Assembly: GCA_963521185.1 (NCBI GenBank)
Contig: CAUQTV010000001.1
Coordinates: 581,081 to 613,080 of the forward strand
Length of the DNA stretch: 32,000 nucleotides
Origin: an uncultured Enterobacter sp.
Lineage (GTDB): Bacteria; Pseudomonadota; Gammaproteobacteria; Enterobacterales; Enterobacteriaceae
Reading direction: 5' to 3'
Part shown: positions 1,464-17,387 of the stretch, piece after piece
Layout: each line of letters starts with the position of its first letter
Position numbering within the stretch: the first letter of the stretch is position 1
Notes under the pieces: model-generated
What the model was told of the DNA's origin: nothing
What the model saw: only the letters and a program-made list of their open reading frames with translations
Database searches by the model: none
Made by a program: the position numbers and the translations under genes

Positions 1464-2254
1464 GCCGAACGCGTGGCAAAGCATGGCTGGCGCTGCTTGC
1501 GATCGCGCCGCTTTACCTGCATGCCGCACCCGCCGCGCAGACGGAGGACGAGCTTACGCTCGATGCGCCGTCAGCACCGGCGGCCACGGGCGGGCGTGAA
1601 GCGCGTGGCGTGCTGCGCGCGGTCGAACAGGCCACGCTCTCCAGCGAGCTGAATGCGCGTATCGTTGAGTTGCCGTTTCGCGAGGGCGAGTCGTTTCATA
1701 AAGGCGATTTGCTGGTGCGATTTGACTGCGCGGCTTACCAGGCGCAGCTTGCCGCGTCGCAGGGGGCCATGCGTGCCGCGCAGCAGGAGCTAAGCCAGAA
1801 CCGGCAGCTTGCGCAAATGCAGTCCGTCGGGCGCACGGCGGTGGGGTTGTCCGAAGCGCGGCTGGCGCAGGCGGCGGCGGAGAGTCAGGTCTACCAGATC
1901 CAGACCAGTCGCTGCCGGGTGCTGGCACCCTTTGACGGCCAGGTGGTATCGCGCAAAGCGCAGGTGTCCGAGTTTTTAGGCCAGGGCATGCCGCTGCTGG
2001 AGATCGTCAACAACAGCCATCTGGAGATTTACCTGCTGGTGCCGTCCCGCTGGCTGTCTACGCTCAAGCCCAAACAGACCTTCACCTTTACACCGGACGA
2101 GACGGGTGAGGCGTTGCAGGCGGAGATCCTGCGCACCGGGGCGAGAATCGACGAGAGCAGCCAGACGCTCACGCTGATTGGCCGCATCACCGGGGCCGGG
2201 GCCGGACTGCTGTCCGGCATGAGCGGCAGTGCGCACTTCACGGAGCCGCAATGA
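1460..2254 (+). CDS. Small periplasmic adaptor (membrane-fusion / HlyD-RND adaptor type) with signal peptide
   Basis: N-terminal signal-like MSRTRGKAWLALLAIAPLYLHAAPAAQ. Lipoyl-hairpin halves (ATLSSELNARIVELPFREGESFHKGDLLVRFD ... RVLAPFDGQVVSRKAQVSEFLGQGMPLLEIV) flank a coiled-coil segment. GTG start overlaps the upstream stop and the stop overlaps the next ATG (ATGA at 2251-2254). Confidence 0.75.
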   Translation: MSRTRGKAWLALLAIAPLYLHAAPAAQTEDELTLDAPSAPAATGGREARGVLRAVEQATLSSELNARIVELPFREGESFHKGDLLVRFDCAAYQAQLAASQGAMRAAQQELSQNRQLAQMQSVGRTAVGLSEARLAQAAAESQVYQIQTSRCRVLAPFDGQVVSRKAQVSEFLGQGMPLLEIVNNSHLEIYLLVPSRWLSTLKPKQTFTFTPDETGEALQAEILRTGARIDESSQTLTLIGRITGAGAGLLSGMSGSAHFTEPQ

Positions 2255-3570
2255 CGAGCGCAGACACCACGAACGCTGAACACATTTTCGCCCGGCTGTT
2301 GCAGCTTGAGCGGCTGGCGCGGCAGGCGGAAAACAGCGAAACCCTGGCCTGGTCGATGGTGAATGACAGCCAGAGCCTGCTCGGCTTTCGTCATGCGGCG
2401 TTGCTGATTGACGGACGCGTGCGGGCGCTGACCGGCGTGTCGGTGCCCGATCCCCATGCGCCGTTTGTCGCCTTCACTGAGCGCGCTGCCCGGCAGGTCG
2501 CGGCGCAGGGGCAGGCGGACAACGTTACCGTGGTCATCGCCGCCTGGCTGGACGAGCAGACCCGCCAGGCGTGGCAAAGCCTGTCTGCGGCGCACGCGCT
2601 GTGGGTCCCGCTGAAAAACCGCAGAGGTGAACGCGTTGGCGGGCTGTGGTTTGCCCGCGATACACAGTGGCAGGAGCATGAACTGCTGCTCGCCGGGCCG
2701 CTGGCTGAGTGCTGGGCCCATGCCTGGCAGGCGTTAGCGCCGCGCCGATCCTGGCGCGCCCGGCGGCTGAAAACCAAAGTGCTAGCGCTCGTGGTTGTGG
2801 TGCTGGTGGCGTTGCTGATCCCGGTGCGCCAGTCGGTGCTGGCCCCGGCGGAAGTGGTGCCGCTGGGCGGCCAGGTGGTGACCGCGCCCCTCGACGGGGT
2901 GATAGCCCAGATAAACGTGCGCCCGAATCAGGTGGTGAAAAAAGGGTTTCTGCTGGCCCAGTTTGACAGCACGGTGCAAAAAGCCCAGGCCGACGTTGCC
3001 GCGCGTGCGCTTGGCGTGGCGGAGGCCGAACTGCGCTCCGGCGCTCAGCGCGCTTTTCAGGACGCGGAGTCGAAAGCCCGGCTGGATCTGCTCGCCGCCC
3101 AGGTGGAGCAAAAACGCGCCGAACTGGCGTGGGCGCAGGATCTGTTGCAGCGCAGCGACGTGCGCGCCGGGCGTGATGGGATCGCGGTGTTTGCCGACGC
3201 CGATCAGCTTGTCGGCAAACCGGTGAGCACCGGCGAGCGGCTGATGGCGATTGCCGACCCGCAACAGGCGGAACTGAAAATTGAACTGGACGTGGGCGAC
3301 GCGATAGATTTCCCCGCCGATGCCGACGTGACGCTGTTTCTCGACAGCGATCCGCTGGTGCGTCACGATGCGCGACTGACCCGCGTGGCCTATGAATCGG
3401 CGCTGACCGCACAGGGTAGCCTGGCGTGGCGGCTTGATGCCCGCTTTATCGACAAAGCCCCGCGCATTGGCCTGCGCGGTACGGCAAAAGTGTATGGTGA
3501 GCGGGTGCCGCTGGCGCTCTATTTGCTGCGTCGTCCGCTGGCAGCGCTGCGTAAAGCGGTGGGCCTGTAA
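2251..3570 (+). CDS. HlyD-family adaptor with about 165-aa cytoplasmic N-terminal domain (GAF-like pattern), one TM helix
   Basis: TM segment VLALVVVVLVALLIPV sits after a soluble N-domain. It is followed by lipoyl-hairpin halves (VVTAPLDGVIAQINVRPNQVVKKGFLLAQFD ... VRAGRDGIAVFADADQLVGKPVSTGERLMAIAD) around a long coiled coil. ATGA overlap upstream and TAATG overlap downstream. Confidence 0.75.
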   Translation: MTSADTTNAEHIFARLLQLERLARQAENSETLAWSMVNDSQSLLGFRHAALLIDGRVRALTGVSVPDPHAPFVAFTERAARQVAAQGQADNVTVVIAAWLDEQTRQAWQSLSAAHALWVPLKNRRGERVGGLWFARDTQWQEHELLLAGPLAECWAHAWQALAPRRSWRARRLKTKVLALVVVVLVALLIPVRQSVLAPAEVVPLGGQVVTAPLDGVIAQINVRPNQVVKKGFLLAQFDSTVQKAQADVAARALGVAEAELRSGAQRAFQDAESKARLDLLAAQVEQKRAELAWAQDLLQRSDVRAGRDGIAVFADADQLVGKPVSTGERLMAIADPQQAELKIELDVGDAIDFPADADVTLFLDSDPLVRHDARLTRVAYESALTAQGSLAWRLDARFIDKAPRIGLRGTAKVYGERVPLALYLLRRPLAALRKAVGL

Positions 3571-5672
3571 TGAGCGTATTGCCCGCACTGCGCGACGATT
3601 TGCAACTGTGCGCCGCTCCGCCCGCGCTCGATGGATCCCCCCAGTGGACGCTGGCTGACACGCTGGCGGGGCGCTATTTCAAACTCAGCGGCAGCGCCAT
3701 GCGCCTGCTGCGCCACTGGGCGCTGGGAGAGGAGGAGCGGGTGCTGGCCGCGGCGAACCGGGAAGCGGGCGTGCCGCTTGGCAGCGACGAAGTGCAGGGG
3801 CTGTTGCGCTTTTTACGCGCCAACGATCTGATCGTCGGCAGCGATAGCGAGCAGCGCGCCAGCTATGGCCTGAAGGCAGCGGCGCGGCGCAAAGGTCTGC
3901 TAACGCAACTGCTGCATCAGTATCTTTTCTTCCGCATTCCGCTCTGGCGTCCCGATCCCTTTCTTAACCGATGCTGGCCGCTACTGGCGCGGCACGGCGG
4001 CTGGCTGCTGCGGTATGGGTTACCGCTCATTGCGATCCTCGGCGGCTATCTGGTGAGCCGCGACTGGCCGCGCTATCGCGATTCATTCTCCTGGCTTTTC
4101 AGCCTGGAAGGGGCGGCGGCCTTTGGCGTGACGCTGGTATTCGCCAAATTTACCCACGAACTGGGGCATGCGTTTATGGCCAGGCGCGCCGGATGCCGGG
4201 TGCAAAGCATGGGCGTGGCCTTCGTGGTGATGTTCCCGATGTTTTACACCGACGTGAGCGACGCCTGGCGCGTGCACTCAACGCGCGCCCGTCTGCTGAT
4301 TGGCGCGGGTGGCATGCTGGCGGAGTTGATGCTGGCGGTCATTGCGCTGCTGGCCTGGTCGCTGTTGCCGGAAGGGCCGCTGCGCACGGCGGCGTTTTTG
4401 CTCTCCAGCGCCACCTGGCTGACCACGCTGGCGGTCAACCTTAATCCGCTGATGCGCTTTGATGGCTATTTTATTCTCAGCGACGCCTGGCAGGTGGATA
4501 ACCTGCAAGGTCGCGCCTTTGCCCTGTGCCGCTGGCGGCTGCGCGAGGCGCTGTTTGGCTATGGCGATCCGCCGCCGCAGCGCTGGTCACCGGGAATGCA
4601 GCGCCGTTTGCTGATCTGGGGTTACGCCTCATGGCTGTGGCGCTTCTTTCTGTTTCTGGGGATCGCGCTGGCGGTGTATCACTTCTTTTTCAAGCTGCTG
4701 GGCCTGTTTCTGATGGCGGTGGAGGTGAGCTGGTTTATCGCACAGCCGATGGTGCATGAATTTCGCCACTGGTGGAAAGAGCGTCAGCGTGCGCAGCCCA
4801 GGCGGGCGATCTGCATCGCGCTGGGTCTGGCGTTCCTGCTGCTGGTGCTGTTTGTGCCCTGGCGCAACCAGATTGCGATCCCCGCGCAGCTCGACGCCGC
4901 CCGCGTCAGCACCCTTTATGCCCCTGTCGCTGCGCAGCTTGTCGCGCTGCATGTGCGTGACGGCCAGACGGTCAGCGCCGGGCAACGCTTGCTGGTGCTG
5001 GAGGCTCCGGATCTGAATGCCCGTCAGGCCATCGCCCGGCAAAAAATCGCGATTTTGCAATTGCAGCTACGCCGGCTTGCCGCCCAGCGAGACACGGTGG
5101 GCGATACGCTGATTTTGCACCAGCAGCTGGCGGAATCGCTGGCGGAGTATCGCGGTCTGGCGGCGCAGCGGCGCAGGCTGGAGATCCGCGCGCCCTGGGC
5201 CGGGCAGGTGCGCGATGTGGAGCAGGATCTGGCCCCCGGCCGCTGGCTGGCTGCGGACCAGCCGCTGTTGCGCGTGGTCAATGCCGGTGCCGGACGCATT
5301 CGCGGCTATTTGCCGGAAGATGCGCTTAGTGCCATCCAGCCTGCGGCGACAGGGCGCTTTATTGCCGACGATCCCAGTCGGGCGGCGCAGGCGGTGCGCG
5401 TGCAGTCCATCGATCCCACCGCCTCGGCGTTTATTGAGCGAGAAGCGCTGACCTCCGATCACGGCGGCCCGGTGGCGGTGCGCCGGGACGGGCAAAAACG
5501 GGCGCGACCGGTTCAGGCCTGGTACGGCGTGGACATCGTCGTGACCGACAACGCAGCATTTCCGCCGCAGCCCCTGCGGGGTGTGGTGGTCATTAACGGC
5601 AAGGCAGAATCTCTGTTTACCAGCGTCTGGCGTCGCATTGCCGTGCTGGGCATCAGAGAGAGTGGTTTTTAG
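3570..5672 (+). CDS. Peptidase M50 (site-2-protease family) zinc metalloprotease fused to C-terminal HlyD-like adaptor domain
   Basis: HELGH (HExxH) at residues 196-200 (nt 4155-4169). Second M50 motif NLNPLMRFDG with Asp298 (nt 4461-4463). Several hydrophobic helices. C-terminal third has lipoyl-hairpin halves (TLYAPVAAQLVALHVRDGQTVSAGQRLLVLEAPDL ... EIRAPWAGQVRDVEQDLAPGRWLAADQPLLRVV) around a coiled coil. The first roughly 90 aa resemble a PqqD/RRE-like winged helix. Confidence 0.8.
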   Translation: MSVLPALRDDLQLCAAPPALDGSPQWTLADTLAGRYFKLSGSAMRLLRHWALGEEERVLAAANREAGVPLGSDEVQGLLRFLRANDLIVGSDSEQRASYGLKAAARRKGLLTQLLHQYLFFRIPLWRPDPFLNRCWPLLARHGGWLLRYGLPLIAILGGYLVSRDWPRYRDSFSWLFSLEGAAAFGVTLVFAKFTHELGHAFMARRAGCRVQSMGVAFVVMFPMFYTDVSDAWRVHSTRARLLIGAGGMLAELMLAVIALLAWSLLPEGPLRTAAFLLSSATWLTTLAVNLNPLMRFDGYFILSDAWQVDNLQGRAFALCRWRLREALFGYGDPPPQRWSPGMQRRLLIWGYASWLWRFFLFLGIALAVYHFFFKLLGLFLMAVEVSWFIAQPMVHEFRHWWKERQRAQPRRAICIALGLAFLLLVLFVPWRNQIAIPAQLDAARVSTLYAPVAAQLVALHVRDGQTVSAGQRLLVLEAPDLNARQAIARQKIAILQLQLRRLAAQRDTVGDTLILHQQLAESLAEYRGLAAQRRRLEIRAPWAGQVRDVEQDLAPGRWLAADQPLLRVVNAGAGRIRGYLPEDALSAIQPAATGRFIADDPSRAAQAVRVQSIDPTASAFIEREALTSDHGGPVAVRRDGQKRARPVQAWYGVDIVVTDNAAFPPQPLRGVVVINGKAESLFTSVWRRIAVLGIRESGF

Positions 5673-5703
5673 TTCGCCTCAACCCTCATTAAGGAAACAC
5701 CTG

Positions 5704-6375
5704 ATGAACAGACGTGCAAAATCCTCATTATGTCTCGTTGCCTCCGGTCTGCTTGTGTTCTCTTTTTCATCGCACGCGCTGGCCTGCGGTGATGGAGATC
5801 CCTACATCGGATCGGTGTGCTTCAACGTTGCGCCTTATTGTCCCGATCTCTATCTTGAGGCCGCCGGACAGTCGGTGAACATCTCTGATTACCAGGCGCT
5901 TTATGCGCTGATTGGCACCACCTACGGCGGTACGACAACGACCTTTATGCTACCGGATCTGCGCGGGCGTGCGCCGGTCGGGCAAGGAACCGGGCCAGGG
6001 CTTACGGCGGCGGTACAGGGCCAGCCTCGCGGTGCGGAAAGCGTGACGCTAAACGCGTCGAACCTGCCGCCGCACGCCCACGCGGGCACCTTTACCCCCG
6101 GCAGCGGATCGGCGCTGTCATTTAACGCCACCAGCAACGCGGCGACATCAGCAACGCCAACCGCTGCGGCCAACCAGTTGAGCACCTCAGCCGGACCGGC
6201 GGTGAAAATGTATGCCCCGTCGGGCGGCACGCAGGTTCCCCTGGCGGGCGTGGGTGGCGCGGCGATCACCGTACAGCCTGCCGGATCGGGTTCCGCCGCC
6301 GTGCCGGTTGTTTCACCGCAGTCGGTACTCAAAGCCTGTATCGCGGTCAACGGTGTTTTCCCCACCCAGTCATAA
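5704..6375 (+). CDS. Exported phage-tail-collar-domain (MdpB-like) protein, paralog 1
   Basis: ATG at 5704 lies 8 nt after AAGGA (5691-5695); the listed GTG at 5581 would overlap the upstream gene. Signal peptide ends ALA|C. Collar-domain motifs YQALYALIGTTYGG..F.LPDLRGRAPVGQGTGPGL, then RGAESVTL..NLPPHAH and C-terminal PQSVLKACIAVNGVFP. Confidence 0.8.
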   Translation: MNRRAKSSLCLVASGLLVFSFSSHALACGDGDPYIGSVCFNVAPYCPDLYLEAAGQSVNISDYQALYALIGTTYGGTTTTFMLPDLRGRAPVGQGTGPGLTAAVQGQPRGAESVTLNASNLPPHAHAGTFTPGSGSALSFNATSNAATSATPTAAANQLSTSAGPAVKMYAPSGGTQVPLAGVGGAAITVQPAGSGSAAVPVVSPQSVLKACIAVNGVFPTQS

Positions 6376-6402
6376 TGCCACTTATTGATAAGGATCAGAC
6401 TC

Positions 6403-7080
6403 ATGAACTGTTCTTTGACCTCTCCGCTCACCCTGACGGCCTGCGCCCTGGCGCTGCTCTCTGCGTCTCCTAATGTGCTGGCGTGCAGTGTCGATCCCTA
6501 CGTGGGTGCGGTGTGCTTTATGGCAACGAGCTTCTGCCCGCGCGGCTATGTGGAAGCTAACGGCCAGCAGATGGCGGTCCAGCAATCGCAGGCGCTGTAC
6601 TCGCTCATTTCGCGGGTGTATACCCCGTCCTCCACCGGTAATACCGCCTTTAACCTGCCCGATCTGCGCGGCAGAAGCCCGGTGGGTATGGGTGTCGAAG
6701 CCAACGGAACCGTGCTGACGCAGGGGCAAATGCGCGGTGCGGAAACCGCCGTTATGGATCTCTCGAACATGCCGCCCCATAGCCACCAGGCGGCACCCGG
6801 TACGGCGGCGTTTTCCCTGAGCGCGACGAGCAATGCCGGCACCTCCACTGGCCCGGCGACGGCCACCAACCAGTTAGCTGCCGCAAGCGGCCCGGCGACA
6901 AAAATCTACGCCCCAGCGGGAGGCACGCAAATTCCGCTGGCGGGGGTGAACGGCGCTCTGACCGGGGCGACGGTGGCGGTGAGCAATACGGGCCAGGCGG
7001 TGCCTTTCGCCACGCTGACACCGCAGACGCCACTGCGCGCCTGCGTGGCGGTGATGGGCATTTATCCGCGAAGACCTTAG
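6403..7080 (+). CDS. Exported phage-tail-collar-domain (MdpB-like) protein, paralog 2
   Basis: ATG at 6403 lies 8 nt after AAGGA (6390-6394). Signal peptide ends VLA|C. Motifs SQALYSLISRVY...FNLPDLRGRSPVGMG, RGAETAVMDLSNMPPHSH and C-terminal PQTPLRACVAVMGIYP. Confidence 0.8.
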   Translation: MNCSLTSPLTLTACALALLSASPNVLACSVDPYVGAVCFMATSFCPRGYVEANGQQMAVQQSQALYSLISRVYTPSSTGNTAFNLPDLRGRSPVGMGVEANGTVLTQGQMRGAETAVMDLSNMPPHSHQAAPGTAAFSLSATSNAGTSTGPATATNQLAAASGPATKIYAPAGGTQIPLAGVNGALTGATVAVSNTGQAVPFATLTPQTPLRACVAVMGIYPRRP

Positions 7081-7132
7081 CGGGTGCGCGAACGAACCTC
7101 TTTTTTCACCACAGTGATATAAGGAACAGGCA

Positions 7133-7807
7133 ATGAAAACCTCTCTTTCTCTGGTGGTTGCGACAACAGCGTTACTGGCTTTCTCGTCCGGCGCACAGGC
7201 GTGCGAAGGCGAGGGCGAGTTTATCGGCGCGGTGTGCTTTACGGCGGCGACCTTCTGCCCGTCGGGTTATCTTGACGCGAACGGGCAAACCGTACTCGTC
7301 AATCAGTTTCAGGGGCTTTACAGCCTGGTGGGCAATCACTATGGCGGTACGCCGGGTGTTAACTTTACGCTGCCGAATCTGCAAGGCTTCAGCCCGGCGG
7401 GGCAGGGAACGGGGCCGGGGCTAACTAACGCTGCGCAATACAGTACGCGCGGCGCAGAGAGCCAAACGCTGACTCAGGCGCAGCTTCCTGCCCATACGCA
7501 TACGGCGACGCTCAATCCCACCGCGACCGGCCTTAGCGTAAATGCCAGCACCAGCCCTGGGGCGAATGCCGCGCCGTCCGCGGCCAATAACCAACTGGCG
7601 ACGGCGACGCCAAACGCAAAAATCTATGCGCCAGCCAGCACCGGTAGCGATACGGTTCCGCTTGCCGGGCTTGCGGGCGGTATCGCCGGGGCGGCTGTGG
7701 CGCTGGCGACCACCGGCGGCGGCATGCCAATAACGACGGTTTCTCCACAGCTGGTGCTGAAAGCCTGTATCGCTTACGACGGCGATTATCCGGTTAACCC
7801 GAATTAA
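7133..7807 (+). CDS. Exported phage-tail-collar-domain (MdpB-like) protein, paralog 3 (divergent DLRGR motif)
   Basis: ATG preceded by AAGGAACAGG. Signal peptide ends AQA|C. Motifs FQGLYSLVGNHYGG...FTLPNLQGFSPAGQGTGPGL, RGAESQTLTQAQLPAHTH and C-terminal PQLVLKACIAYDGDYP. Confidence 0.8.
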   Translation: MKTSLSLVVATTALLAFSSGAQACEGEGEFIGAVCFTAATFCPSGYLDANGQTVLVNQFQGLYSLVGNHYGGTPGVNFTLPNLQGFSPAGQGTGPGLTNAAQYSTRGAESQTLTQAQLPAHTHTATLNPTATGLSVNASTSPGANAAPSAANNQLATATPNAKIYAPASTGSDTVPLAGLAGGIAGAAVALATTGGGMPITTVSPQLVLKACIAYDGDYPVNPN

Positions 7808-7820
7808 CCCTCAGCAAATC

Positions 7821-7848
7821 GTCACGCCAGGCGCTTCTCTGGCGTGAC
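7821..7848 (+). terminator. 10-bp stem hairpin downstream of the tail-collar genes (no U-tract)
   Basis: GTCACGCCAG (7821-7830) pairs with CTGGCGTGAC (7839-7848) around an 8-nt loop, 14 nt after the stop at 7807. There is no T-run, so terminator function is uncertain. Confidence 0.35.
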
Positions 7849-8038
7849 AGGATATGTCACGCGAAGGGATCACTAAAAAGAATACGCCAGAAATGGCTTG
7901 TTATTCAGCGGCTTGTGATAAGCGAATTATTATGCCCCCTGGCCTGAAATTCATCCGTTACGTTGACATATCCTGACACCGACACCCCGCATAATATCCC
8001 CACAAAACAACAAACTGACATCAAAAGGACTTCGGGAC

Positions 8039-8761
8039 GTGAAGAAGCCTCACACTCGCCATGACCGACTGGCGGTGCGCTTATCGGTGATGATAAGTCG
8101 CTTGCTGGCCGGGGAAACGCTCAATCTGGGTGCGCTTGCGGAGGAGTTCGGTGTTTCTGAGCGCACTTTGCAGCGCGATCTGCATGAGCGGCTTTTGCAT
8201 CTCGATCTCATTCATCACAACGGTCACTACAGCATGCCGGGCAACCGCATTCGCCAGCACTCCCCAGATATTCTGACCTTTACGCGTAATACCGGGATTG
8301 CGGCGGTATTCCCCGGTCAGCACCGCAGACTGGTGAATACGATAGCCGCCAGTAAAGACATGCAGCCATGCGTGATTTCGCTGCCGGAACTGCGTTTTTC
8401 CGCCACCGTGGCGGACTGTTTTCACCGACTGCTGCTGGCCATTACACAGAGTCGCCGCATCATTTTATTTACCGACGGCGAACAGTACGTCAGCACGGAA
8501 CCTTACCAGCTTATTTTCCAGAAAGAGGCCTGGTATCTGGTGGCGTGGTGCCAGGACGCCGTGCAGGTTTTTGCGCTCGACGATATCGACGCGGTGATTG
8601 TGATGGAGCAGGTCTTCAGCCGACGCCGGGATATTAGCGCGCTGGCGGCGCAGGCGCGTTTTATTGCCGCACTTCCGTATTTCCGCGTTATTCATGAGGT
8701 GCAGGCGACGCTGAATCAACACGGTGATGGCTTCGATAAACGAAACCAGAAATATTTGTAA
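8039..8761 (+). CDS. HTH + WYL-domain transcriptional regulator
   Basis: N-terminal DeoR/YafY-type HTH (LNLGALAEEFGVSERTLQRDLHE). Central WYL signature (PYQLIFQKEAWYLVAWCQDAVQVFALDDI). GTG start 9 nt after AAGGA. Confidence 0.8.
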   Translation: MKKPHTRHDRLAVRLSVMISRLLAGETLNLGALAEEFGVSERTLQRDLHERLLHLDLIHHNGHYSMPGNRIRQHSPDILTFTRNTGIAAVFPGQHRRLVNTIAASKDMQPCVISLPELRFSATVADCFHRLLLAITQSRRIILFTDGEQYVSTEPYQLIFQKEAWYLVAWCQDAVQVFALDDIDAVIVMEQVFSRRRDISALAAQARFIAALPYFRVIHEVQATLNQHGDGFDKRNQKYL

Positions 8762-8798
8762 ACCTCGCCACGCGCTTATTTAAGATGAGAATGTCACG

Positions 8799-9089
8799 AT
8801 GCACACTTCCGAATCCCGCCCTCTGACGCCCGTAGAGAGCTGGCAGAAATTATTAACCTGGCTACTGGCCAAACATTATGGACTGGCGCTCAGCGAAACG
8901 CCTTTTGACGATCCGGCGGTTATTGGCGGCTATATTGATGCTGACGTGTCGCTGGTGGATGCCCTCAATGAATGGGTTAAGTGCGTAGCGATCACGCGCA
9001 TTGATACGCCCCCGTTCCACTGGCGGGAACCCACGCCCTATATCGAACTTATCGATATTTTGCAGGCGCAGCAGTGGGTGAAATTGTAA
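8799..9089 (+). CDS. CbtA/YeeV/YkfI-family (type IV TA) toxin-like protein, short form
   Basis: SRPLTPVESWQKLLTWLLAKHYGLALSETPFDDPAVIGGYIDADVSLVDALNEWV..ITRID lines up by eye with E. coli CbtA [54 protein letters not shown]..LVRTD. It is shorter at both ends than the 124-aa CbtA. Confidence 0.7.
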   Translation: MHTSESRPLTPVESWQKLLTWLLAKHYGLALSETPFDDPAVIGGYIDADVSLVDALNEWVKCVAITRIDTPPFHWREPTPYIELIDILQAQQWVKL

Positions 9090-9141
9090 GAAAAGGGTGG
9101 CTGGTAGGGGTTATAGCATGGAGGACATTTACTCCCCCGCT

Positions 9142-9600
9142 TTATGATTCCATAACGATCGGCGCAACACCCTCATTTGTGCGGATCCAACGCGGCGCGA
9201 TCATTTCGGCAGTGAAGTATTCGACCAGTTCTGCCAGCAAACTGCTGAGCTGTTTTTTCATTATTTCGGGGATTTCGTCGTAGTGTAAAAGTTGGGTAAG
9301 CGTGAGGCAGTAGCGGCACAGCGAATCGGCGTCAGGGGCGAAGCGCGGGAACGTGTCGGGCAAGGTATTTACGGTCAGACTGTCGCGCAAATGCAACGGG
9401 ATGGGATCGAAGAGGTCCGCCTGAATCAGCTTCAGTACCGCGGCCAGGCGGGCGTAGAACGCCAGTTTCAGCTCAGGATCGTCGCATTCAATCTGGGCAA
9501 TAGCGAGTTCCTCGCACAGCTTCGCAAGCGTAGTGAAATCGGTATCGGCATTGAAGGGAACACAAAGTAACGGGTGTGCGTTGACGAGGATCGTAGCCAT
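9142..9600 (-). CDS. Hypothetical acidic protein (152 aa), no family recognised
   Basis: Long ORF with balanced codon usage, convergent with the cbtA-like gene and divergent from the xre-RES pair. I recognised no motifs. Confidence 0.5.
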   Translation of the reverse strand: MATILVNAHPLLCVPFNADTDFTTLAKLCEELAIAQIECDDPELKLAFYARLAAVLKLIQADLFDPIPLHLRDSLTVNTLPDTFPRFAPDADSLCRYCLTLTQLLHYDEIPEIMKKQLSSLLAELVEYFTAEMIAPRWIRTNEGVAPIVMES

Positions 9601-9829
9601 AGGGACAGCCTGTACCTGATTTGCGAATGCGTGAGAAGCATACTGTGACAGGAGATGGCTGACAATTGTAATGAGGATAAATGCGGCGAGCTACGCAGAA
9701 GTGGAAAATAGCGCCCTGAAACTAAAAATCCATGCAGGGTGGGGGAAAAGAAAGTCTGCGATCCTTTTTGAAGGTTATGGCGGATATGATATTATTAAAT
9801 CATTCCAATAACCCATGCGGGAGAGCGTC

Positions 9830-10504
9830 ATGCGTGTCCAGAAAGTGCAATCTGGGGTTTCCACCCTGACTGGAACCCCGGAAGAAGTGCGTAACAGGCT
9901 CGGTAAATCACATGCCGATCACGTGCTGGTCGTCAGTTTCGAGCACCTGAGTCCTTCCGGGTCAAAAATATTTATTGAAAATCTGTCCAGCGTGGCGTCG
10001 TCCATGTTTGGGCTGCTTCAGGAACAGCAGAGTCGCAACTCGCTACAGCGTCTGGCGGATGCACTGGTGCCGCGTACACCAGCGCCACCCCGGCTTATCA
10101 GAGAAACAGCCATGCTGGTTAAGGCGCGCAAAGCCGTTCTGGACAGTGGTGACTGGCTGAGCGCTGCCGAACTGGCACAGTTGGCGCAGCTGAGCACCAC
10201 CAATCCGAGCGCTCAGCCGAACAAATGGAAGAAGAACGGACACATCTTCGCGATTCACCACAACGGTGTTGATTACTTCCCCGGCTATGGCCTGGACAGG
10301 GATGCGAATTTCCGGCCTCTGAAAACGATGGCTCAGGTGATCGAGGTGTTTGACGGCCATAAAGACGGATGGGGGATGGCCTTCTGGTTTCTCTCGGCCA
10401 ACAGCTTCCTTGGTGGGAAACGACCGCAGGACTTACTTGCTACAGACCCTGAGCGGGTGATCGCGGCAGCCATGGATGAAGTTCAGGGTGTCGAGCATGG
10501 CTAA
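9830..10504 (+). CDS. Xre/MbcA/ParS-type antitoxin (C-terminal DUF2384 toxin-binding domain), long form
   Basis: C-terminus WFLSANSFLGGKRPQDLLATDPERVIAAAMDEV is the DUF2384 signature. It sits immediately upstream of, and overlaps, a RES-domain gene. ATG 9830 is preferred over 9815 because GGGAGAG (9819-9825) lies 4 nt upstream. Confidence 0.75.
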   Translation: MRVQKVQSGVSTLTGTPEEVRNRLGKSHADHVLVVSFEHLSPSGSKIFIENLSSVASSMFGLLQEQQSRNSLQRLADALVPRTPAPPRLIRETAMLVKARKAVLDSGDWLSAAELAQLAQLSTTNPSAQPNKWKKNGHIFAIHHNGVDYFPGYGLDRDANFRPLKTMAQVIEVFDGHKDGWGMAFWFLSANSFLGGKRPQDLLATDPERVIAAAMDEVQGVEHG

Positions 10505-11204
10505 GCGTCCTGTCAGGGCAAAGGGTGTCCCTGAGCAACCGGAGCAGGAGGAGGCGGGAACTACGCCACTGCCTCAACCCGGTCCCCTTAAAACCACAAC
10601 ACTGTCAGTGAGTGCAGGAACAGTGTTGCACCGCGTCCATCAGGAGCAATGTGCGGCCGACCAGTTCAACCCGGGTGTCAAAGGCAACGCGCGTTTTAGC
10701 CCCATCCGGAATGCGGAGGGCGGCACCATCCCGACCCTGTACGCAGGCCTGACCAGGGAGTGCGCCATGATGGAGACCGTCTTTCACGATGTGCCTTTTG
10801 CGCCAGGGCTTAAAACGTACGATAAAAGCAAACTGGACGGGCAGTTGCACTCGACGCTGATGGTCACCGACGATCTGGAGTTACTGGATCTGACCAGTAT
10901 CTCGTTGCGCAAACTGGGTATCACCCGCAAGCAGTTGATCGATACGGAGAAGGATCAGTATCCCAATACCCGCAAATGGGCCGAGGCGTTGCATCAGCAG
11001 TGCCCGACGGCACAGGGGTTATCCTGGGTCTCCAGGCAGGATGACACCACGCGGGCCATGGTACTGTTTGGCACTCGGGTTTCTGTGCAGGCACTTCGTC
11101 CCACAGGCGAGTCGCTTAGTCTGGTCAATGACACCGCCACCTACGATGCTGTGCTCGATTTGGCTGAGAGGCTGGATGTGCTGATTGTCCCGGGTAAAGA
11201 CTGA
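10497..11204 (+). CDS. RES-domain toxin (MbcT/ParT-like NAD+-targeting family)
   Basis: R-E-S landmarks are GNARFSP, RECAMMETVFHD and GLSWVSRQDD. ATG 10497 overlaps the antitoxin stop (ATGGCTAA, 8-nt overlap); the listed start at 10476 is the alternative. Confidence 0.85.
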   Translation: MAKRPVRAKGVPEQPEQEEAGTTPLPQPGPLKTTTLSVSAGTVLHRVHQEQCAADQFNPGVKGNARFSPIRNAEGGTIPTLYAGLTRECAMMETVFHDVPFAPGLKTYDKSKLDGQLHSTLMVTDDLELLDLTSISLRKLGITRKQLIDTEKDQYPNTRKWAEALHQQCPTAQGLSWVSRQDDTTRAMVLFGTRVSVQALRPTGESLSLVNDTATYDAVLDLAERLDVLIVPGKD

Positions 11205-11476: not shown

Positions 11477-11983
11477 ATGGACACCGCTACAGTAACAACG
11501 TCAGAAAAACCTACTTTGCACCTGTTATGTGGAAAAATTGCATCTGGGAAATCCACACTGTCAGCAAAGCTGGGATCATCACCTGGCACCGTAATTGTCA
11601 GTGAGGATCTTTGGCTGGCTGCTCTCTTTGCTAAAGAAATGCATTCCATATCTGATTATGTTCAGTATTCCTCAAGGCTGAGAAATGCTATGAAACCTCA
11701 TCTGGTGTCACTACTCAAAGCTGGTTTATCAATAGTTCTTGATTTCCCGGCAAACACACAAACAAATCGTGAATGGATGATGAGCATCATTAAGGAGTCA
11801 GGTGCTTGTAACCAACTGCACTATCTCAAAGTATCTGATGAAGTATGTAAATCCCGCTTACGCGCTCGTAACGCAGAAGGAGAACATGAATTTTCCGCTT
11901 CAGATCAACAATTTGAAATCATAACGCGTTATTTCTCAGAACCAAAAGCTGATGAAGGGTTTAATATTATAGAATACAGCTGA
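11477..11983 (+). CDS. P-loop NTPase / small kinase-like ATP-binding protein (AAA_33-like)
   Basis: Walker A CGKIASGKST near the N-terminus. About 170 aa, typical of small nucleotide or antibiotic kinase-like proteins. RBS GTGAGG upstream. Lies in the AT-rich context. Confidence 0.7.
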   Translation: MDTATVTTSEKPTLHLLCGKIASGKSTLSAKLGSSPGTVIVSEDLWLAALFAKEMHSISDYVQYSSRLRNAMKPHLVSLLKAGLSIVLDFPANTQTNREWMMSIIKESGACNQLHYLKVSDEVCKSRLRARNAEGEHEFSASDQQFEIITRYFSEPKADEGFNIIEYS

Positions 11984-12090
11984 ATCCATCTTTATGAACA
12001 TAAGCCGTCTGCTGGCGGCTTTACAGCCTGGGCGCGGAGCGGATAGGTACGCTGGTCTTTAGCGGCTGTAAACAACCTACAGGGTGACTC

Positions 12091-12300
12091 TCAGAGTGAA
12101 TTTCTGCGCTTCCACTCATCCACCACATCACCTAAGTTTTTTGGTACATCATTTCTTATCCAGGCCATAAACGCACGATCAAATTTAAAGTTCGGACCAC
12201 ATTCATCAATCATGAAACGACGAACATTTTGTGTATTTTTGTAGTTGTTATCCACGAAAGTGGTGCGATCTAAAGAAGAACCATGCCAGTCTGTTTTCAT
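12091..12300 (-). CDS. Small protein, DUF6434-like
   Basis: 69-aa ORF with YKNTQNVRRFM...FKFDRAFMAWI, a pattern I associate with DUF6434 proteins. Assignment is from memory only. Confidence 0.45.
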   Translation of the reverse strand: MKTDWHGSSLDRTTFVDNNYKNTQNVRRFMIDECGPNFKFDRAFMAWIRNDVPKNLGDVVDEWKRRNSL

Positions 12301-12671
12301 TTATTTATTCCTAAAAACAAGTGTAGTAGCCTAAAGCTATCATACTAACTTTTGATATGTCCGCACCTGGCACACAGAGAACATCCAGGCCTCTCCGGTC
12401 ACGGCATGAAGGGCAGAAAATCCAGAACAAGGCGGGCATTTTCTCAACCGCAACTGCGCAGAGACATCACTGATGCTCGCAAACCTTTATGGTGCCAGTG
12501 GGTGCCTGTCGAAGATTGGCCGGCAAACCCGCCCGGTTAAGTCATTCCTGCTGGCTGCGCGGAATCTTGCATGCCAATATGATGTGCTACATGCTTATAC
12601 CTTACAATTTATGCGACAGTTTTGCTAAACGCCCTAAAATTGAAGCTCAGCCAGATGTACGGAGTCTACTC

Positions 12672-13157
12672 ATGTGGGAAAAATTTATAATCAAAAACTT
12701 CAACAAAGTTAAAGATGTTAATTTCAAGAGAGCACCGCTCTATGAGTCAGAAGGTGGATCTCTTACCTCTGGCACTTTGGCGATAAAACTCGGAGCATCT
12801 GTTGACACTCTTCCCCCAGGCAAAAGATGTTCACCTTTTCATTTTCATCATGTTCAGGAAGAAATGTTTATCGTTTTAAAAGGCAATGGAACATTGAGAA
12901 TCGCAGATGAGATGGTTGAGATAGAGGAAGGGGACGTTATATGTATTCCCCCTGGAGAGGCATACCCACATCAAATCATAAATACTTCATCCTTGCCACT
13001 TACTTATATGTCTGTGAGTACCATGGAGACGCCCGAGGTCTGTGAGTATCCAGACTCAAATAAATATTTAGTTAAATCAACTAACCAGAAAGAACAGGGG
13101 TTTAGAGTCGCAGATTTCAGGAGCAGAGGGGTGGATTATTGGGAGGGTGAGCCTTGA
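12672..13157 (+). CDS. Cupin-domain protein
   Basis: Cupin motifs are FHFHHVQEEMFIVLKGNG and GDVICIPPGEAYPHQIIN. ATG 12672 is preceded by GGAG (12661-12664). The listed upstream extension from 12489 has no cupin-like sequence. Confidence 0.75.
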   Translation: MWEKFIIKNFNKVKDVNFKRAPLYESEGGSLTSGTLAIKLGASVDTLPPGKRCSPFHFHHVQEEMFIVLKGNGTLRIADEMVEIEEGDVICIPPGEAYPHQIINTSSLPLTYMSVSTMETPEVCEYPDSNKYLVKSTNQKEQGFRVADFRSRGVDYWEGEP

Positions 13158-13476
13158 TTCAAAAAATACCGTTTCCATTTCTATCACTAGTAACATCCGC
13201 TCTTGGCTCGGAGCAGAAATGCGCGCCCAGCAATGTCCGCTGTGAGCGAGGTATAGTCATTCGTACCCTGAGAATTACACTTTGAAGTGATTCAGGGTAT
13301 GCGCTTACTGGTTACGAATATTGAGCGAGAATCATGTGATGATCGCCGCTTTTCTTTCGAACCAGTAGGTGCTCCACGTTCGCTAACGAATACTCAGGGC
13401 ATGCAGATAAACTGCTGGCTATATTTCTTTCGAAGAGCGTGGAATGCATACCAATCCCCGATAAAAGGAGTTGGTG

Positions 13477-14715
13477 ATGACTGCGACTAATTAATTTGCT
13501 GCACATGTTGGTCTGGACTGGGCAGATAAAAAACACGATGTATGTGTTCAGTTTAAAAACGGTGAACGCGTATTCCATGTGATTGAACATACAGCAGAAG
13601 CGCTTGATGCCTGGCTTACCGAGTTACACCAGAAGGTAAAAGGCAGGATCGCTATAGCTCTCGAGCTGAAGAAGGGACCCGTGGTGTATGCTCTTCAGAA
13701 ATATCCGTTTATCACCGTTTTCCCCGTCCACGCTTTGTCCCTGGCTCGTTACCGGCAAGCCTTCTCGCCCAGCGGAGCTAAAGATGACCCGCAGGATGCC
13801 GAGCTGGCATTAGAGTTAATGCTGCGTTATCCCCAAAAGATAAAAGCCATTGAACTCGACAATGCGGATATCCGGTTACTCCAGCAACTGGTTGAGCAGC
13901 GTCGTCAACTGGTTGAAGATAAACGACGTTTCGTGAACCGGCTAATCAACACGCTTAAACAGTATTATCCTCAGCCACTGGAGTGGTTCTCACATCGGGG
14001 TAGCTTGCTGTTGTGTGAACTGATTATACGGTGGCCCAGTCTGCAACAACTCAAACGCGCCAGGCGCGATACAATCCGCGACTTTCTCAATGCTAAAGGT
14101 GGCCGCGCAATGGCTCTTACCGAGCAGCGTGTGGTGAGTATTGATAACGCGATCCTATTGACGACAGACCCGAGTGTTATAGAGGCTAATGCTTTGATGG
14201 CAACAGCACTGGCGACACAAATTAAAGTCGTGAGTGAAATAATCAAAACCTATGACGAACGAATCGAAACGCTGTTTGACACATTGCCGGATGCGGTGCT
14301 GTTCAAATCACTTCCGGGCATGGGGCCGTGTATGGGCCCACGAATGCTTGCTGCACTTGGTGATAACCGTGACCGGTTTAACAACGCTGAAGAAATTCAA
14401 AACTACGCAGGTATTGCACCGGTGACAGAACGAAGTGGCCAGAAATCCTGGGTTCACTGGAGATGGCAGTGTGCGAAGTTCGTCAGGCAGACATTTGTTG
14501 AATGGGCTGCCAGGACGGTTAACTCATCATACTGGGCCAAACTTTATTACCAGGGCCAGCGAGACAAAGGGAAATCGCATCAATCAGCCATCCGGGCTCT
14601 GGCGTTTAAATGGATAAGGATCATTTACCGCTGCTGGAAGACCAGAACCCGCTACGACGAAGCAAAATATTTGCTGGCACTCGAAGCGCGACGCTCGCCC
14701 TTACTTAGGCCATAA
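13477..14715 (+). mobile_element. IS110-family insertion sequence, transposase gene region (minimum extent, element ends not determined); frame interrupted by TAA at 13492-13494
   Basis: AAAAGGAG (13463-13470) followed by ATG 13477 reads M-T-A-T-N-stop. The same frame then continues F-A-A-H-V-G-L-D-W-A-D-K-K-H-D-V-C-V... into the listed ORF. GLDWADKKHD matches the N-terminal GIDxxK motif carrying the first DEDD aspartate. Confidence 0.7.
13579..14715 (+). CDS. IS110-family transposase, longest intact ORF (lacks N-terminal catalytic Asp segment)
   Basis: Typical IS110/IS1111-type sequence: LKSLPGMGPCMGPRMLAALGD...AGIAPVTERSGQKSWVHWRW.C.KFVRQTF.EWA...YY..QR.KGKSH..AIRALAFKWIRIIYRCW. The GTG start is simply the first start codon after the in-frame stop. 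Confidence 0.8.
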   Translation: MIEHTAEALDAWLTELHQKVKGRIAIALELKKGPVVYALQKYPFITVFPVHALSLARYRQAFSPSGAKDDPQDAELALELMLRYPQKIKAIELDNADIRLLQQLVEQRRQLVEDKRRFVNRLINTLKQYYPQPLEWFSHRGSLLLCELIIRWPSLQQLKRARRDTIRDFLNAKGGRAMALTEQRVVSIDNAILLTTDPSVIEANALMATALATQIKVVSEIIKTYDERIETLFDTLPDAVLFKSLPGMGPCMGPRMLAALGDNRDRFNNAEEIQNYAGIAPVTERSGQKSWVHWRWQCAKFVRQTFVEWAARTVNSSYWAKLYYQGQRDKGKSHQSAIRALAFKWIRIIYRCWKTRTRYDEAKYLLALEARRSPLLRP

Positions 14716-14978
14716 AAGCTTGTCGAATGTCTCAGGGCGTGAAGCGGACAATGCTAACAGCATTCTGTGTGAATCAATAGGGAGCATGTCATGTTAATCA
14801 ACAACGATATATTTTCTCCATATGCACGTTCAAGTTCATTGCGTCAGTAAACTATATAATTGCTAACGATGATAAGTATAATTATATAAGCCTTTGCCCT
14901 TAGCTTTTGAATAATTTTGTTGAAGTTTCACGAAAATAATGATAAACAAAAAAAGTAGCAATAATTAAGGATTTAATT

Positions 14979-15911
14979 ATGGAATGGAGATTTTTAGGTT
15001 CTATATCAGAGGCTAGGAAATCTGGCTGTAGCGGAGTTTATCTTATTGTCCATAAAGGGATTTTCAATCGTGTGGTTTACGTTGGGGTAAGTTGTAATGT
15101 AGGTAGAAGGATAAACGAACATTACGACGGTTACCTGAGAGGAAACCGAACAATTTACGACGCGGGCCACGATGACGACGTGTATCGCTTCATGTCAGCT
15201 TATAAAATTCATAACCACACAAAATACTATCAAGCCTTGGCGAAGGATTATAAGATATGGGCATCTACAACATTGCATTCTGATTTGCCGAAAAACATGC
15301 TAGCAAAAAGCCAAATCTTTGATACCGACTGGCAGAGTATTGCATTTGAAAAATATATTCCTCAACTGGTAGTATGGGCCCTTCCAATGGCAAGTTACTG
15401 TTATTCAAATGCAAGCAGGATTGAAAGTGTAATCCAATCAAAGCTCATTAAATCTTTTGATTTGAGAGGTTTTTTTAATATAAAAGAACTAAGCATATTG
15501 GGTAAAATTGAATATCCCTATATGGAAAAGGTCAAGGCTTTCATTATTGATACGCCTGATTTGGATCCGGCATCCCAGCTTATTTTTAGCAATCTGTATA
15601 ACAAAAAAACTGATGACAACTTCTGTAAAGAGTTCCACTCACAGTTTAAAAGAGAGATTTTTCAGAGGGAAATTGGAACTCAGAGAAAGCGAACTATCAG
15701 GGAGCATAAGGTCTCTCTTTATGAAAATTATGGCAAGCCTTGGACTTTAAAGGAAATGGAAAAACTTAGAGTCATGCTTGTCGATTTTGATTTGTCCCCG
15801 ACAGAAATATCTGAGTATATGGGAAGAGAGCCTCGCTCTATCTCTAAAAAAATAAGCGAAAATGATAAAGTTACTAATTATAAATGGCGAGAGAGCGTCG
15901 GCTGGTTGTGA
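14979..15911 (+). CDS. Hypothetical protein with N-terminal GIY-YIG-like nuclease motif and C-terminal Myb/SANT-like HTH
   Basis: SGVYLIVHKGIFNRVVYVGVSCNVGRRINEHY fits GIY-(x10)-YxG-(x)-R..H. RIESVIQSKL is a possible catalytic Glu helix. The C-terminus KPWTLKEMEKLRVMLVDFDLSPTEISEYMGREPRSISKKI resembles a Myb-like repeat. Strongly AT-rich gene. Confidence 0.55.
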   Translation: MEWRFLGSISEARKSGCSGVYLIVHKGIFNRVVYVGVSCNVGRRINEHYDGYLRGNRTIYDAGHDDDVYRFMSAYKIHNHTKYYQALAKDYKIWASTTLHSDLPKNMLAKSQIFDTDWQSIAFEKYIPQLVVWALPMASYCYSNASRIESVIQSKLIKSFDLRGFFNIKELSILGKIEYPYMEKVKAFIIDTPDLDPASQLIFSNLYNKKTDDNFCKEFHSQFKREIFQREIGTQRKRTIREHKVSLYENYGKPWTLKEMEKLRVMLVDFDLSPTEISEYMGREPRSISKKISENDKVTNYKWRESVGWL

Positions 15912-16143: not shown

Positions 16144-16166
16144 AGGTGCAAATGTGGGGCAGGGCG

Positions 16167-17261
16167 TTAGACGTTAAACAGGAAGTTCATCACGTCGCCA
16201 TCTTTTACGATGTACTCTTTACCTTCTGCGCGCATCTTACCGGCTTCTTTCGCGCCCTGTTCGCCTTTGTAGGCGATAAAGTCTTCAAACGCGATGGTTT
16301 GTGCGCGGATAAAGCCTTTTTCGAAGTCGGTATGGATTTTACCGGCAGCCTGCGGGGCAGTTGCGCCCACCGGGATGGTCCATGCACGCACTTCTTTCAC
16401 GCCAGCGGTGAAATAGGTTTGCAGGTTCAGCAGTTCGTAACCGGCGCGGATCACGCGGTTCAGACCTGGCTCTTCCAGACCCATTTCCGCCATGAACTCG
16501 TCGCGATCGGCATCGTCGAGTTCAGCAATGTCAGACTCTACGGCGGCACACACGGCCACTACCACGGAGCCTTCGTTAGCGGCGATTTCGCGCACTTTGT
16601 CGAGGTACGGGTTATTTTCAAAACCGTCTTCGTTCACGTTGGCGATATACATGGTCGGTTTCAGCGTCAGGAAGCTCAGGTAGCGGATCGCCGCTTTGTC
16701 TTCTTCGGTGAGACTTTTCAGCGAGCGCAGCATGCCGGCTTCGGAGAGGTGCGGCAGGCATTTTTCCAGCGCGACCTGTTCTGCTTTCGCGTCTTTATCG
16801 CCGCCTTTGGCTTTCTTCTGTACGCGATGCAGTGCGCGTTCGCAGGTGTCGAGATCGGAGAGCGCCAGCTCGGTGTTGATCACCTCGATGTCATCCGCCG
16901 GATCCACTTTATTGTTCACGTGGATGATGTTGTCGTTTTCAAAGCAGCGCACCACGTGGCCGATGGCTTCGGTTTCACGGATGTTGGTCAGGAACTGGTT
17001 GCCCAGGCCTTCACCTTTCGATGCGCCTTTTACCAGACCGGCGATGTCCACGAACTCCATGGTGGTCGGCAGAATGCGCTGCGGTTTAACGATCTCTGCG
17101 AGCTGGTCCAGACGCGGGTCTGGCATTGGCACGACGCCGGTGTTCGGCTCAATGGTACAGAACGGGAAGTTGGCCGCTTCGATGCCCGCTTTGGTGAGCG
17201 CATTGAACAGGGTAGATTTACCGACGTTCGGCAAGCCGACGATACCGCATTTGAATCCCAT
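16167..17261 (-). CDS. ychF: Ribosome-binding ATPase YchF
   Basis: [42 protein letters not shown]... is near-identical to E. coli YchF. 364 aa. Conserved position next to pth. Confidence 0.97.
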
Positions 17262-17387
17262 GGTTTAAATCACCTTAATATCTTGATATTCAACCTGTTA
17301 GCGAAAACAGATTGTAGAAAAGTTAATAACTTAGCCTATTATACACGTAACCGTTGCCCTGCGCGGCAAAAAAGCCCGTTGCAGGGA

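Follow-up and report, generated by a model that had tools for sequence, protein, structure and literature searches.

Introduction

The CbtA family (Pfam PF06755) includes the toxins of three type IV toxin-antitoxin (TA) systems of Escherichia coli, YpjF/YfjZ, CbtA/CbeA and YkfI/YafW, which belong to the cryptic elements CP4-57, CP4-44 and CP4-6, respectively. Substitution of serine for Phe65, a determinant of binding to the H6/H7 loop of FtsZ, abolishes FtsZ binding in CbtA, YkfI and YpjF and changes the affected cells from lemons to spheres; a CbtA double mutant, R15C/F65S, is non-toxic, and R15 is not conserved in the family (PMC5624674). CbtA/CbeA modules have been described at the ends of integrase-bearing defence islands (PMC12458937), and BrxR homologues or WYL regulators have been reported to be co-localised with type II and type IV TA systems (PMC9122601). 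Here we describe a 32,000-nucleotide (nt) stretch of DNA from an uncultured Enterobacter sp. (contig CAUQTV010000001.1, positions 581,081 to 613,080; hereafter the window), in which a gene for a winged helix-turn-helix (wHTH) WYL regulator of 240 amino acids (aa) is directly followed by a gene for a short, divergent CbtA-family protein that has no CbeA partner.

It is well established that WYL regulators can head operons for defence or stress. Single-stranded DNA (ssDNA) releases CapW from its operator (PMC11662680), and DriD and PafBC activate transcription when bound to ssDNA. The regulator described here belongs to the family of YfjR, an uncharacterised regulator of E. coli K-12, and the comparison below traces both genes of the pair to the island family in which YfjR and YpjF are found.

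A WYL regulator gene directly followed by a CbtA-like gene without CbeA

The coordinates of the pair and of other features are given in Table 1. The pair was first proposed from the sequence letters alone, and the positions of both open reading frames (ORFs), their common direction and the gap between them proved to be as the original prediction had given them. Because of an in-frame TAA at 8781-8783, inside the spacer, an upstream extension of the 96-aa ORF is not possible. The family assignments were examined with profiles and both lie above their cut-offs. The 240-aa protein scored 32.5 bits against WYL (PF13280; cut-off 21.8), and its N-terminus, which carries an HTH of the DeoR/HTH_11 type, scored 23.3 bits against HTH_DeoR (cut-off 21). 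The 96-aa protein matched CbtA_toxin (PF06755) with 86.4 bits (E = 1.7e-24; cut-off 25) over profile positions 15-100 of 112. NCBIfam gave no useful match for the pair, and a sequence search of the PDB returned no structure for either protein.

A hidden Markov model (HMM) built from 51 CbeA proteins and run against all six frames of the window (E ≤ 1, HMMER filters off) detected no CbeA-like frame, which bears out the predicted absence of CbeA and extends it to the whole 32 kb. As a positive control, the same HMM recovered CbeA in another locus (L096); it found none within 14 kb around the relative L001, a contig introduced below. The arrangement that marks a CbtA/CbeA type IV system, a CbeA (PF06154) gene immediately 5' of the toxin gene, is accordingly lacking in both the window and L001. 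An RNA antitoxin or a repeat array was considered and rejected, as Rfam families and tandem repeats were both absent from 7700-9800. By sequence, the locus encodes a CbtA family member without CbeA and without the Phe65 hallmark of the characterised toxins.

Relatives of the pair and selection on both genes

When 1.84 billion representative proteins were searched exhaustively with phmmer, the 96-aa protein had a single close relative, P0002 (96 aa, 67% identity), all other matches being at most 51% identical. A word-indexed protein search likewise returned only the window's own protein and one relative. P0002 is encoded on three read-archive contigs (L001-L003), on each of which a 240-aa WYL gene precedes the 96-aa gene; these pairs lie downstream of the same three Collar-domain genes as in the window, and the genes to their right are entirely different. 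In a third variant (L095) a gap of 46 nt separates the WYL gene from an ORF that begins with MQTPEPQPLTPSESWQKLLAWLLEK, of which the contig carries only the first 25 codons. The pair is thus seen in three sequence variants (window, L001-L003 and L095), and the adjacency, for which chance juxtaposition in a single strain had been a concern, is kept in two further lineages. At the DNA level, 7800-9700 had no match among E. coli genomes and plasmids, and a two-sequence toxin alignment found nothing in 185,579 GTDB species genomes or in JGI metagenomes. Because the clade is absent from these collections, the collapsed pair probably had a single origin.

Nucleotide homology between the window and L001 is confined to two blocks, the second of which covers 7949-9087 of the window, beginning approximately 90 nt 5' of the WYL start and extending into the toxin stop codon, whose last two bases it leaves out. 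To the left of this block L001 has an extra acetyltransferase gene, and to the right its sequence is unrelated. Since homology around the pair is limited to this block, the unit is discrete, and its surroundings have turned over.

We estimated selection by the Nei-Gojobori method between the window and L001, as the ratio of nonsynonymous to synonymous divergence (omega) and the synonymous divergence (dS). Omega was 0.10 for the regulator (dS 0.80) and 0.23 for the 96-aa gene (dS 1.04), as compared to 0.22 for the third Collar-domain gene (dS 0.79) and 0.11 for the M50-HlyD gene (dS 0.57). The synonymous excess was significant for both members of the pair (Fisher p = 6e-8 for the 96-aa gene; p = 2e-31 for the regulator). 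Neither gene has acquired an indel at dS 0.8-1.0, the ORF lengths are equal in both lineages, and in neutral substitution-only simulations the 96-aa ORF stayed open in only 5.8%. Because the synonymous excess is significant, the frames are open and indels are absent, these sequence comparisons indicate that the WYL and CbtA-like genes are both maintained by purifying selection.

Linkage of YfjR-like and YpjF-like genes in CP4-57-type islands

The regulator is 43% identical to E. coli K-12 YfjR in a full-length alignment that covers 221 residues, and the 96-aa protein is 48% identical to YpjF; the genes for YfjR and YpjF both lie in CP4-57, approximately 7 kb apart. Full-length homology, the N-terminal HTH and the central WYL motif place the regulator in the YfjR family, and it has many homologues in Enterobacterales at approximately 40-49% identity. 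A recurring gene order surrounds YfjR-like genes in E. coli and Hafnia: GTPase, WYL, small lipoprotein/membrane genes and DUF932, followed by antirestriction and/or RadC, CbeA, CbtA and DUF4942. Among outside relatives, the one closest to the regulator, P0005 (66% identity), is found in this canonical GTPase-WYL-lipoprotein-DUF932 context.

The homologue survey that had been suggested for the pair was carried out on 80 loci with a YfjR-like gene, each from a different GTDB species, and its outcome was divided. Linkage is common, in that a co-directional CbtA gene lies downstream of the YfjR-like gene in 55 of the 80 loci, at a distance of 0.6-9.2 kb (median 3.4 kb), whereas a regulator directly followed by CbtA was found in none of them (0/80). 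CbeA is immediately 5' of CbtA in 54 of these 55 loci. The single exception, in Photorhabdus akhurstii (L092 11252-12226), is a chimeric 324-aa ORF that starts 582 nt after the YfjR-like gene and joins a YfjT-like N-terminus to the first ~60 CbtA residues and a DUF4942-like C-terminus; here an independent deletion has reduced the same island module to a pseudogene. The small ORFs that follow YfjR-like genes elsewhere were rejected as cryptic CbtA or CbeA genes, being lipoprotein/membrane proteins with no HMM signal.

Since YfjR and YpjF homologues are linked in 55/80 species loci, we regard the window as a collapsed CP4-57-type island module. The same linkage speaks against the implication of the original prediction that unrelated parts had been newly combined. 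The WYL-CbtA linkage is an old property of the CP4-57-type island family, and the window is its most collapsed form.

Absence of Phe65 and of CbeA in short CbtA-like proteins

We aligned the 96-aa protein with 82 other CbtA proteins, using the numbering of YpjF. Relative to YpjF it is missing positions 4-10 (7 residues) and ends at residue 103 of 109, so that the earlier description of it as shorter at both termini is true, though only modestly so. Residue 65, which is Phe in 74/82 of the other proteins, is Glu in the window and Ala in P0002; the determinant of binding to the FtsZ H6/H7 loop is thus lacking. Approximately ten near-invariant positions besides Phe65 are also changed, namely H52Y, L66W, E68K, Y70V, R77T/K, G79P/A, R96Q/N, R98Q/C and G102K. 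Canonical FtsZ targeting by the 96-aa protein is consequently judged unlikely from its sequence, and so, given Glu at position 65 here and Ala in P0002, are the lemon-shaped cells that had been expected on its expression. An AlphaFold 2 (AF2) model of the protein (predicted local distance difference test score, pLDDT, 73) has four helices and no Foldseek match in the PDB.

Other CbtA-like proteins of approximately 100 residues (101-103 aa), drawn from the exhaustive phmmer search, were examined in the same way, CbeA being looked for within 3-7 kb (Table 1). All four short proteins are without CbeA, and three of them (P0130, P0140 and P0147) are without Phe65. In a rough neighbour-joining tree the window clade groups with P0140 and P0123 and not with the main body of the family, which is linked to CbeA, a placement in which long-branch effects are possible. 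This small sample suggests that short CbtA-like proteins without Phe65 are also without CbeA, and that a CbeA-independent branch may exist within PF06755; among the papers retrieved, we found none describing such a CbeA-independent, Phe65-less branch.

Fold and candidate operators of the regulator

An AF2 model of the regulator was computed from a 50-sequence alignment (mean pLDDT 76). It comprises a winged HTH, a poorly predicted linker, a five-strand barrel with the WYL motif and three short C-terminal helices (197-231), and residues 231-240 are predicted to be disordered. The model thus has the wHTH plus WYL (Sm-like barrel) fold, and its WYL motif includes W165 and L167, which do not vary across the alignment. 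Its best Foldseek matches in the PDB are PafBC, CapW, DriD and BrxR (probability 1.0, E 3e-7 to 1e-5), with a template modelling (TM) score of approximately 0.3 and 11-19% identity. The label of BrxR/CapW-type regulator given to the protein at the outset is right at the level of fold, whereas its own family is that of YfjR. As the protein is approximately 50 residues shorter than CapW, BrxR, DriD and PafBC (240 versus ~290-330), the presence of a full WCX domain in the model is doubtful. By analogy to these proteins, the regulator probably responds to ssDNA.

Two operator-like sites lie 119 nt apart upstream of the WYL gene. The proximal site, GACATATCCTGAC, is identical in L001, L095 and L004, and equivalents of the distal site occur 116-118 nt 5' of it in these contigs (L001 7043/7161; L095 906/1024; L004 2620/2736). 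The aligned upstream regions share the conserved stretch TTGACATATCCTGACACC...CATAATATCCCCA. Comparison with 80 other genes showed that a near-palindrome of the GACA-N5-TGTC type is common to the upstream regions of YfjR-like genes across Enterobacterales; examples besides that of the window are GACACTCCCTGTC, CGACATAACGTGTCG and, in E. coli K-12 (L012 16628), GTCCATACCCTGTC. It is located approximately 12 nt 5' of a CATAAT hexamer, which is present in this way in 19 survey loci. A strict form of the motif occurs in 42/83 upstream regions as compared to 0.125 expected from shuffles, and of its 81 occurrences across 1.45 Mb of locus DNA, 67 fall in the 300 nt 5' of the WYL gene. With a looser form, at least one site was found within 350 nt 5' of the gene in all of the usable loci (77/77), and two sites 108-123 nt apart in 42/77. 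A further copy of the motif follows the WYL stop codon by 116-176 nt in eight loci.

On this comparative evidence the near-palindrome is a candidate operator for YfjR; no paper defining a YfjR operator was found in the literature. The paired upstream near-palindromes typical of the YfjR family, approximately 110-120 nt apart, are present in the window, which has thus kept the full control region of the family, and the spacing fits autoregulation via two operators. A role for the WYL protein as transcriptional controller, one of two that had been suggested for it, is plausible in view of these sites and of the fold shared with CapW, BrxR, DriD and PafBC.

We infer a promoter at 7964-7998. No terminator-like site was found in the 37-nt spacer between the two genes; the spacer is 46 nt in L001, yet the GAGA-containing octamer ATGAGAAT before the ATG is kept. 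Co-transcription of the WYL and CbtA-like genes would be the simplest reading of this arrangement. The third Collar-domain gene is closely followed by a perfect inverted repeat of 10 nt (GTCACGCCAG / CTGGCGTGAC, 8-nt loop, 7821-7848), which abuts the distal operator-like site and is probably the terminator of the upstream cluster.

Proposed function and alternative explanations

We propose that a self-contained unit of approximately 1.25 kb (7846-9089) comprises two operator-like palindromes, a promoter-like region, the WYL gene, the spacer and the CbtA-like gene. Both genes derive from the accessory module that CP4-57-type integrative islands have conserved, in which the regulator gene lies 2-9 kb 5' of a CbeA-CbtA pair; in this lineage the intervening genes, including that of the antitoxin, have been lost, and the remaining pair has been kept as a predicted bicistronic operon. 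The WYL protein may bind the palindromes and autoregulate, and so set the level of the co-transcribed CbtA-like protein; by analogy to CapW, BrxR, DriD and PafBC, it probably senses ssDNA arising from DNA damage or from the replication of phages or mobile elements. Because Phe65 is lost and the helix around it is remodelled, the 96-aa protein would not be a canonical dual FtsZ/MreB inhibitor, and might instead be an attenuated, MreB-only or retargeted effector. If the level of such an effector were set transcriptionally, a dedicated antitoxin would be unnecessary, which would explain how the gene is tolerated without CbeA. Taken as a package, an autoregulated operon under the control of a WYL protein that responds to ssDNA, with an attenuated, MreB-only or retargeted CbtA-like effector as its product, is the reading that we favour, with somewhat better than even confidence, from sequence and analogy. 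Two extensions of it are more speculative and we put them forward tentatively, neither being the likely case: that a member of a CbeA-independent branch of short PF06755 proteins (96-103 aa) without Phe65 has here become the sole cargo of an ssDNA-sensing WYL regulator, the two genes forming a minimal module which DNA damage or phage would induce and which would stop growth or alter cell shape, and, held at the same low level of confidence, that the module is a TA-like or abortive-infection switch in which ligand-sensing transcriptional control replaces the antitoxin.

Several observations weigh against this reading. The clade is very small, consisting of three variants that all come from metagenomic or read-archive assemblies, and the selection estimates derive from one full-length pairwise comparison. 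CbtA variants with F65S are still toxic through MreB (PMC5624674), and loss of Phe65 consequently does not prove attenuation. A search of 32 kb leaves room for a cbeA paralogue that may lie elsewhere in the genome. A sigma-70 consensus scan called no plus-strand promoter 5' of the WYL gene, because the spacing from TTGACA to CATAAT is 21 nt, and with such an atypical -35/-10 spacing the regulator could be an activator of the PafBC/DriD kind, not a repressor. In addition, E. coli YfjR gave no peaks in one chromatin immunoprecipitation-exonuclease (ChIP-exo) study (PMC8464067), and DNA binding by members of the YfjR family is thus a prediction.

Among the alternatives, the one that survives best, although we consider it unlikely, is that the 96-aa protein is a fully active CbtA-type toxin checked by a CbeA encoded elsewhere, its adjacency to the WYL gene being incidental. 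YafW and YfjZ each neutralise YkfI or YpjF (PMC5371832), several CP4-like islands are common per enterobacterial genome, and two loci each were present in several survey species; a CbeA acting in trans is thus conceivable. However, the changes at Phe65 and at the other near-invariant positions argue against unchanged activity, CbeA is absent both from the window and from the 14 kb around the relative, and the other short CbtA-like proteins are likewise without it.

Slightly less probable still is that the pair is a functionless remnant, left by a single deletion in a decaying CP4-57-like island and persisting by drift or hitch-hiking. The low omega values of both genes at dS near 1 (0.10 for the regulator and, for the small gene, 0.23 with p = 6e-8), with ORFs of equal length, and the conservation of the regulatory sites though both flanks have turned over, are not what such a remnant would predict. 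It would, on the other hand, fit the one narrow phylogenetic origin of the pair, which is missing from the species genomes and metagenomes searched, the obvious pseudogene that a similar deletion collapse yielded in Photorhabdus, and the orphan CbtA-like genes that adjoin insertion sequence (IS) fragments elsewhere.

The least probable alternative is that the WYL protein is a type II-like DNA-binding antitoxin, which would hold the CbtA-like protein inactive by direct contact until a trigger inactivates or degrades it. In its favour are the layout of the locus (HTH gene, short gap, small toxin gene, palindromes upstream) and a regulator C-terminal tail that is 11/12 identical between the window and L001 although residues 231-240 are predicted to be disordered. 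This second suggestion of the original prediction nevertheless goes unsupported, as the regulator aligns end to end, with no added domain, with YfjR homologues that are not beside toxins, and similar tails occur without an adjacent CbtA, e.g. in P0022, whose likely locus (L015) is free of CbtA for 5.5 kb downstream.

Genomic setting and neighbouring genes

The window is part of a 1.7-Mb metagenomic scaffold. Its right side consists of core enterobacterial genes (ychF, pth, a SulP/STAS permease gene, prs, ispE, lolB, hemA, prfA, chaA and chaC), and mixed cargo of lower G+C content (GC) lies between the pair and ychF. No gene for an integrase, AlpA, a YfjP-like GTPase, DUF932, an antirestriction protein or RadC was found in the window. 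The pair is therefore not placed inside a CP4-57-type island; its neighbours are a secretion/Collar-domain cluster and unrelated cargo.

The left cluster (63-7807, GC 63-66%) encodes a TolC-like OEP protein, two HlyD-type adaptors, a 700-aa M50-peptidase/HlyD fusion and three tandem Collar-domain (PF07484) paralogues of 223-225 aa each. Its DNA is 82% identical to L001, and the cluster has the appearance of an export system devoted to small secreted proteins of the Collar-domain type.

The 152-aa ORF that converges with the CbtA-like gene had no match in Pfam, NCBIfam, PADLOC or PHROGs. It was rejected as a partner of the pair, having no family match and being absent from the relative contigs that keep the WYL and CbtA-like genes. 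Beyond it, a second TA-like pair occupies 9815-11204, where a gene for a 229-aa protein overlaps that of a 242-aa RES-domain protein (68.6 bits) by 29 nt. The 229-aa protein, the putative antitoxin, is approximately twice the usual length, and its C-terminal Xre/MbcA/ParS match is weak (15 bits, below the cut-off). The cargo at 11477-15911 has a GC of 39-47%. A 428-aa ORF at 16146-17432 (plus strand) has no family match; it overlaps the minus-strand ychF GTPase gene (16167-17261, called in L094) and is probably a spurious antisense frame of ychF.

Table 1. Features of the window and, where a contig is named, loci of short CbtA-like proteins
Feature	Coordinates	Strand	Remarks
Distal operator-like palindrome	7846-7858	.	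GACAGGATATGTC; arms GACA/TGTC; YfjR-family upstream motif
Proximal operator-like site	7965-7977	+	GACATATCCTGAC; overlaps TTGACA hexamer 7964-7969
-10-like element	7991-7998	+	CATAATAT; 13 nt after proximal site; conserved in window, L001 and L004
wHTH-WYL regulator, YfjR family	8039-8761	+	GTG start, 240 aa
Spacer, 37 nt	8762-8798	+	conserved ATGAGAAT (GAGA, Shine-Dalgarno-like) 5' of ATG
Short divergent CbtA-family protein	8799-9089	+	ATG start, 96 aa; CbeA partner absent
152-aa ORF	9142-9600	-	convergent with CbtA-like gene
AAA_33/zeta-toxin-like kinase	11477-11983		
Cupin protein	12489-13157		
IS110-family transposase	13579-14715		
310-aa ORF	14979-15911		weak GIY-YIG match
P0123	L093 6001-6312		position 65 Phe; CbeA absent; isolated, adjoins IS fragments
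P0130	L098 7001-7306		position 65 Ser; CbeA absent; between antirestriction and RadC, 1.5 kb after YfjR-like gene
P0140	L099 3480-3791		position 65 Gln; CbeA absent; isolated, adjoins HNH nuclease
P0147	L101 7001-7312		position 65 Asp; CbeA absent; directly after DUF932
P0124 (canonical)			position 65 Tyr; CbeA present; full module including CbeA

Significance and comparison with known systems

If the pair is functional, it would represent a relative of cytoskeleton toxins that has been kept without its antitoxin once the FtsZ-contact residue was lost and a ligand-sensing regulator was in control, and would provide a concrete route from a selfish TA module to a host-retained effector. It would also offer a testable handle on YfjR, in the form of a paired operator motif and a minimal natural operon with one output. 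CbeA was absent in all four Phe65-less contexts examined, which suggests that CbeA dependence tracks FtsZ targeting; if true, this would have implications for the mode of action of type IV antitoxins. An inert pair, by contrast, would simply be a neat case of a decaying island. For specialists, an experiment on the reduced architecture and on the correlation of Phe65 with CbeA would be worthwhile.

The 96-aa protein resembles YpjF, CbtA and YkfI in being a PF06755 member from the same island family. In contrast to these toxins of 109-124 aa, it has no CbeA partner, carries Glu in place of Phe65 and is changed at H52, E68, Y70, R77, G79, R96, R98 and G102, and its gene comes directly after the island regulator and not after RadC-DUF987-CbeA. 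The regulator shares with YfjR (b2634, CP4-57) and its Enterobacterales homologues its length, the wHTH-WYL architecture and the paired palindromes. Canonical YfjR members are preceded by a YfjP-like GTPase and followed by lipoprotein/membrane genes, DUF932, antirestriction and RadC, and then CbeA-CbtA, whereas the window has none of those flanking genes and the CbtA-like gene follows at once.

The wHTH-WYL-WCX repressors CapW and BrxR, of CBASS and BREX, and the activators DriD and PafBC are similar in fold, and the regulator gene likewise heads its unit; the putative controlled gene here, however, encodes a single small CbtA-like protein and not a recognised defence system. PADLOC matched the regulator to generic WYL models only (70 bits) and no model to the 96-aa protein or the neighbouring genes, so that the regulator does not head an anti-phage system recognised by that tool. 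OrtT of E. coli (PMC4344625) is similar in being a toxin-family gene without a cognate antitoxin, whereas the orphan of the window belongs to a different protein family and lies in a predicted operon with a putative ligand-sensing regulator. The original prediction knew of no description of such a module, and we too found no paper in the literature that pairs CbtA with a WYL regulator. Thus, the reduced architecture appears to be new, while its parts and their linkage in islands are already familiar from YfjR and YpjF.

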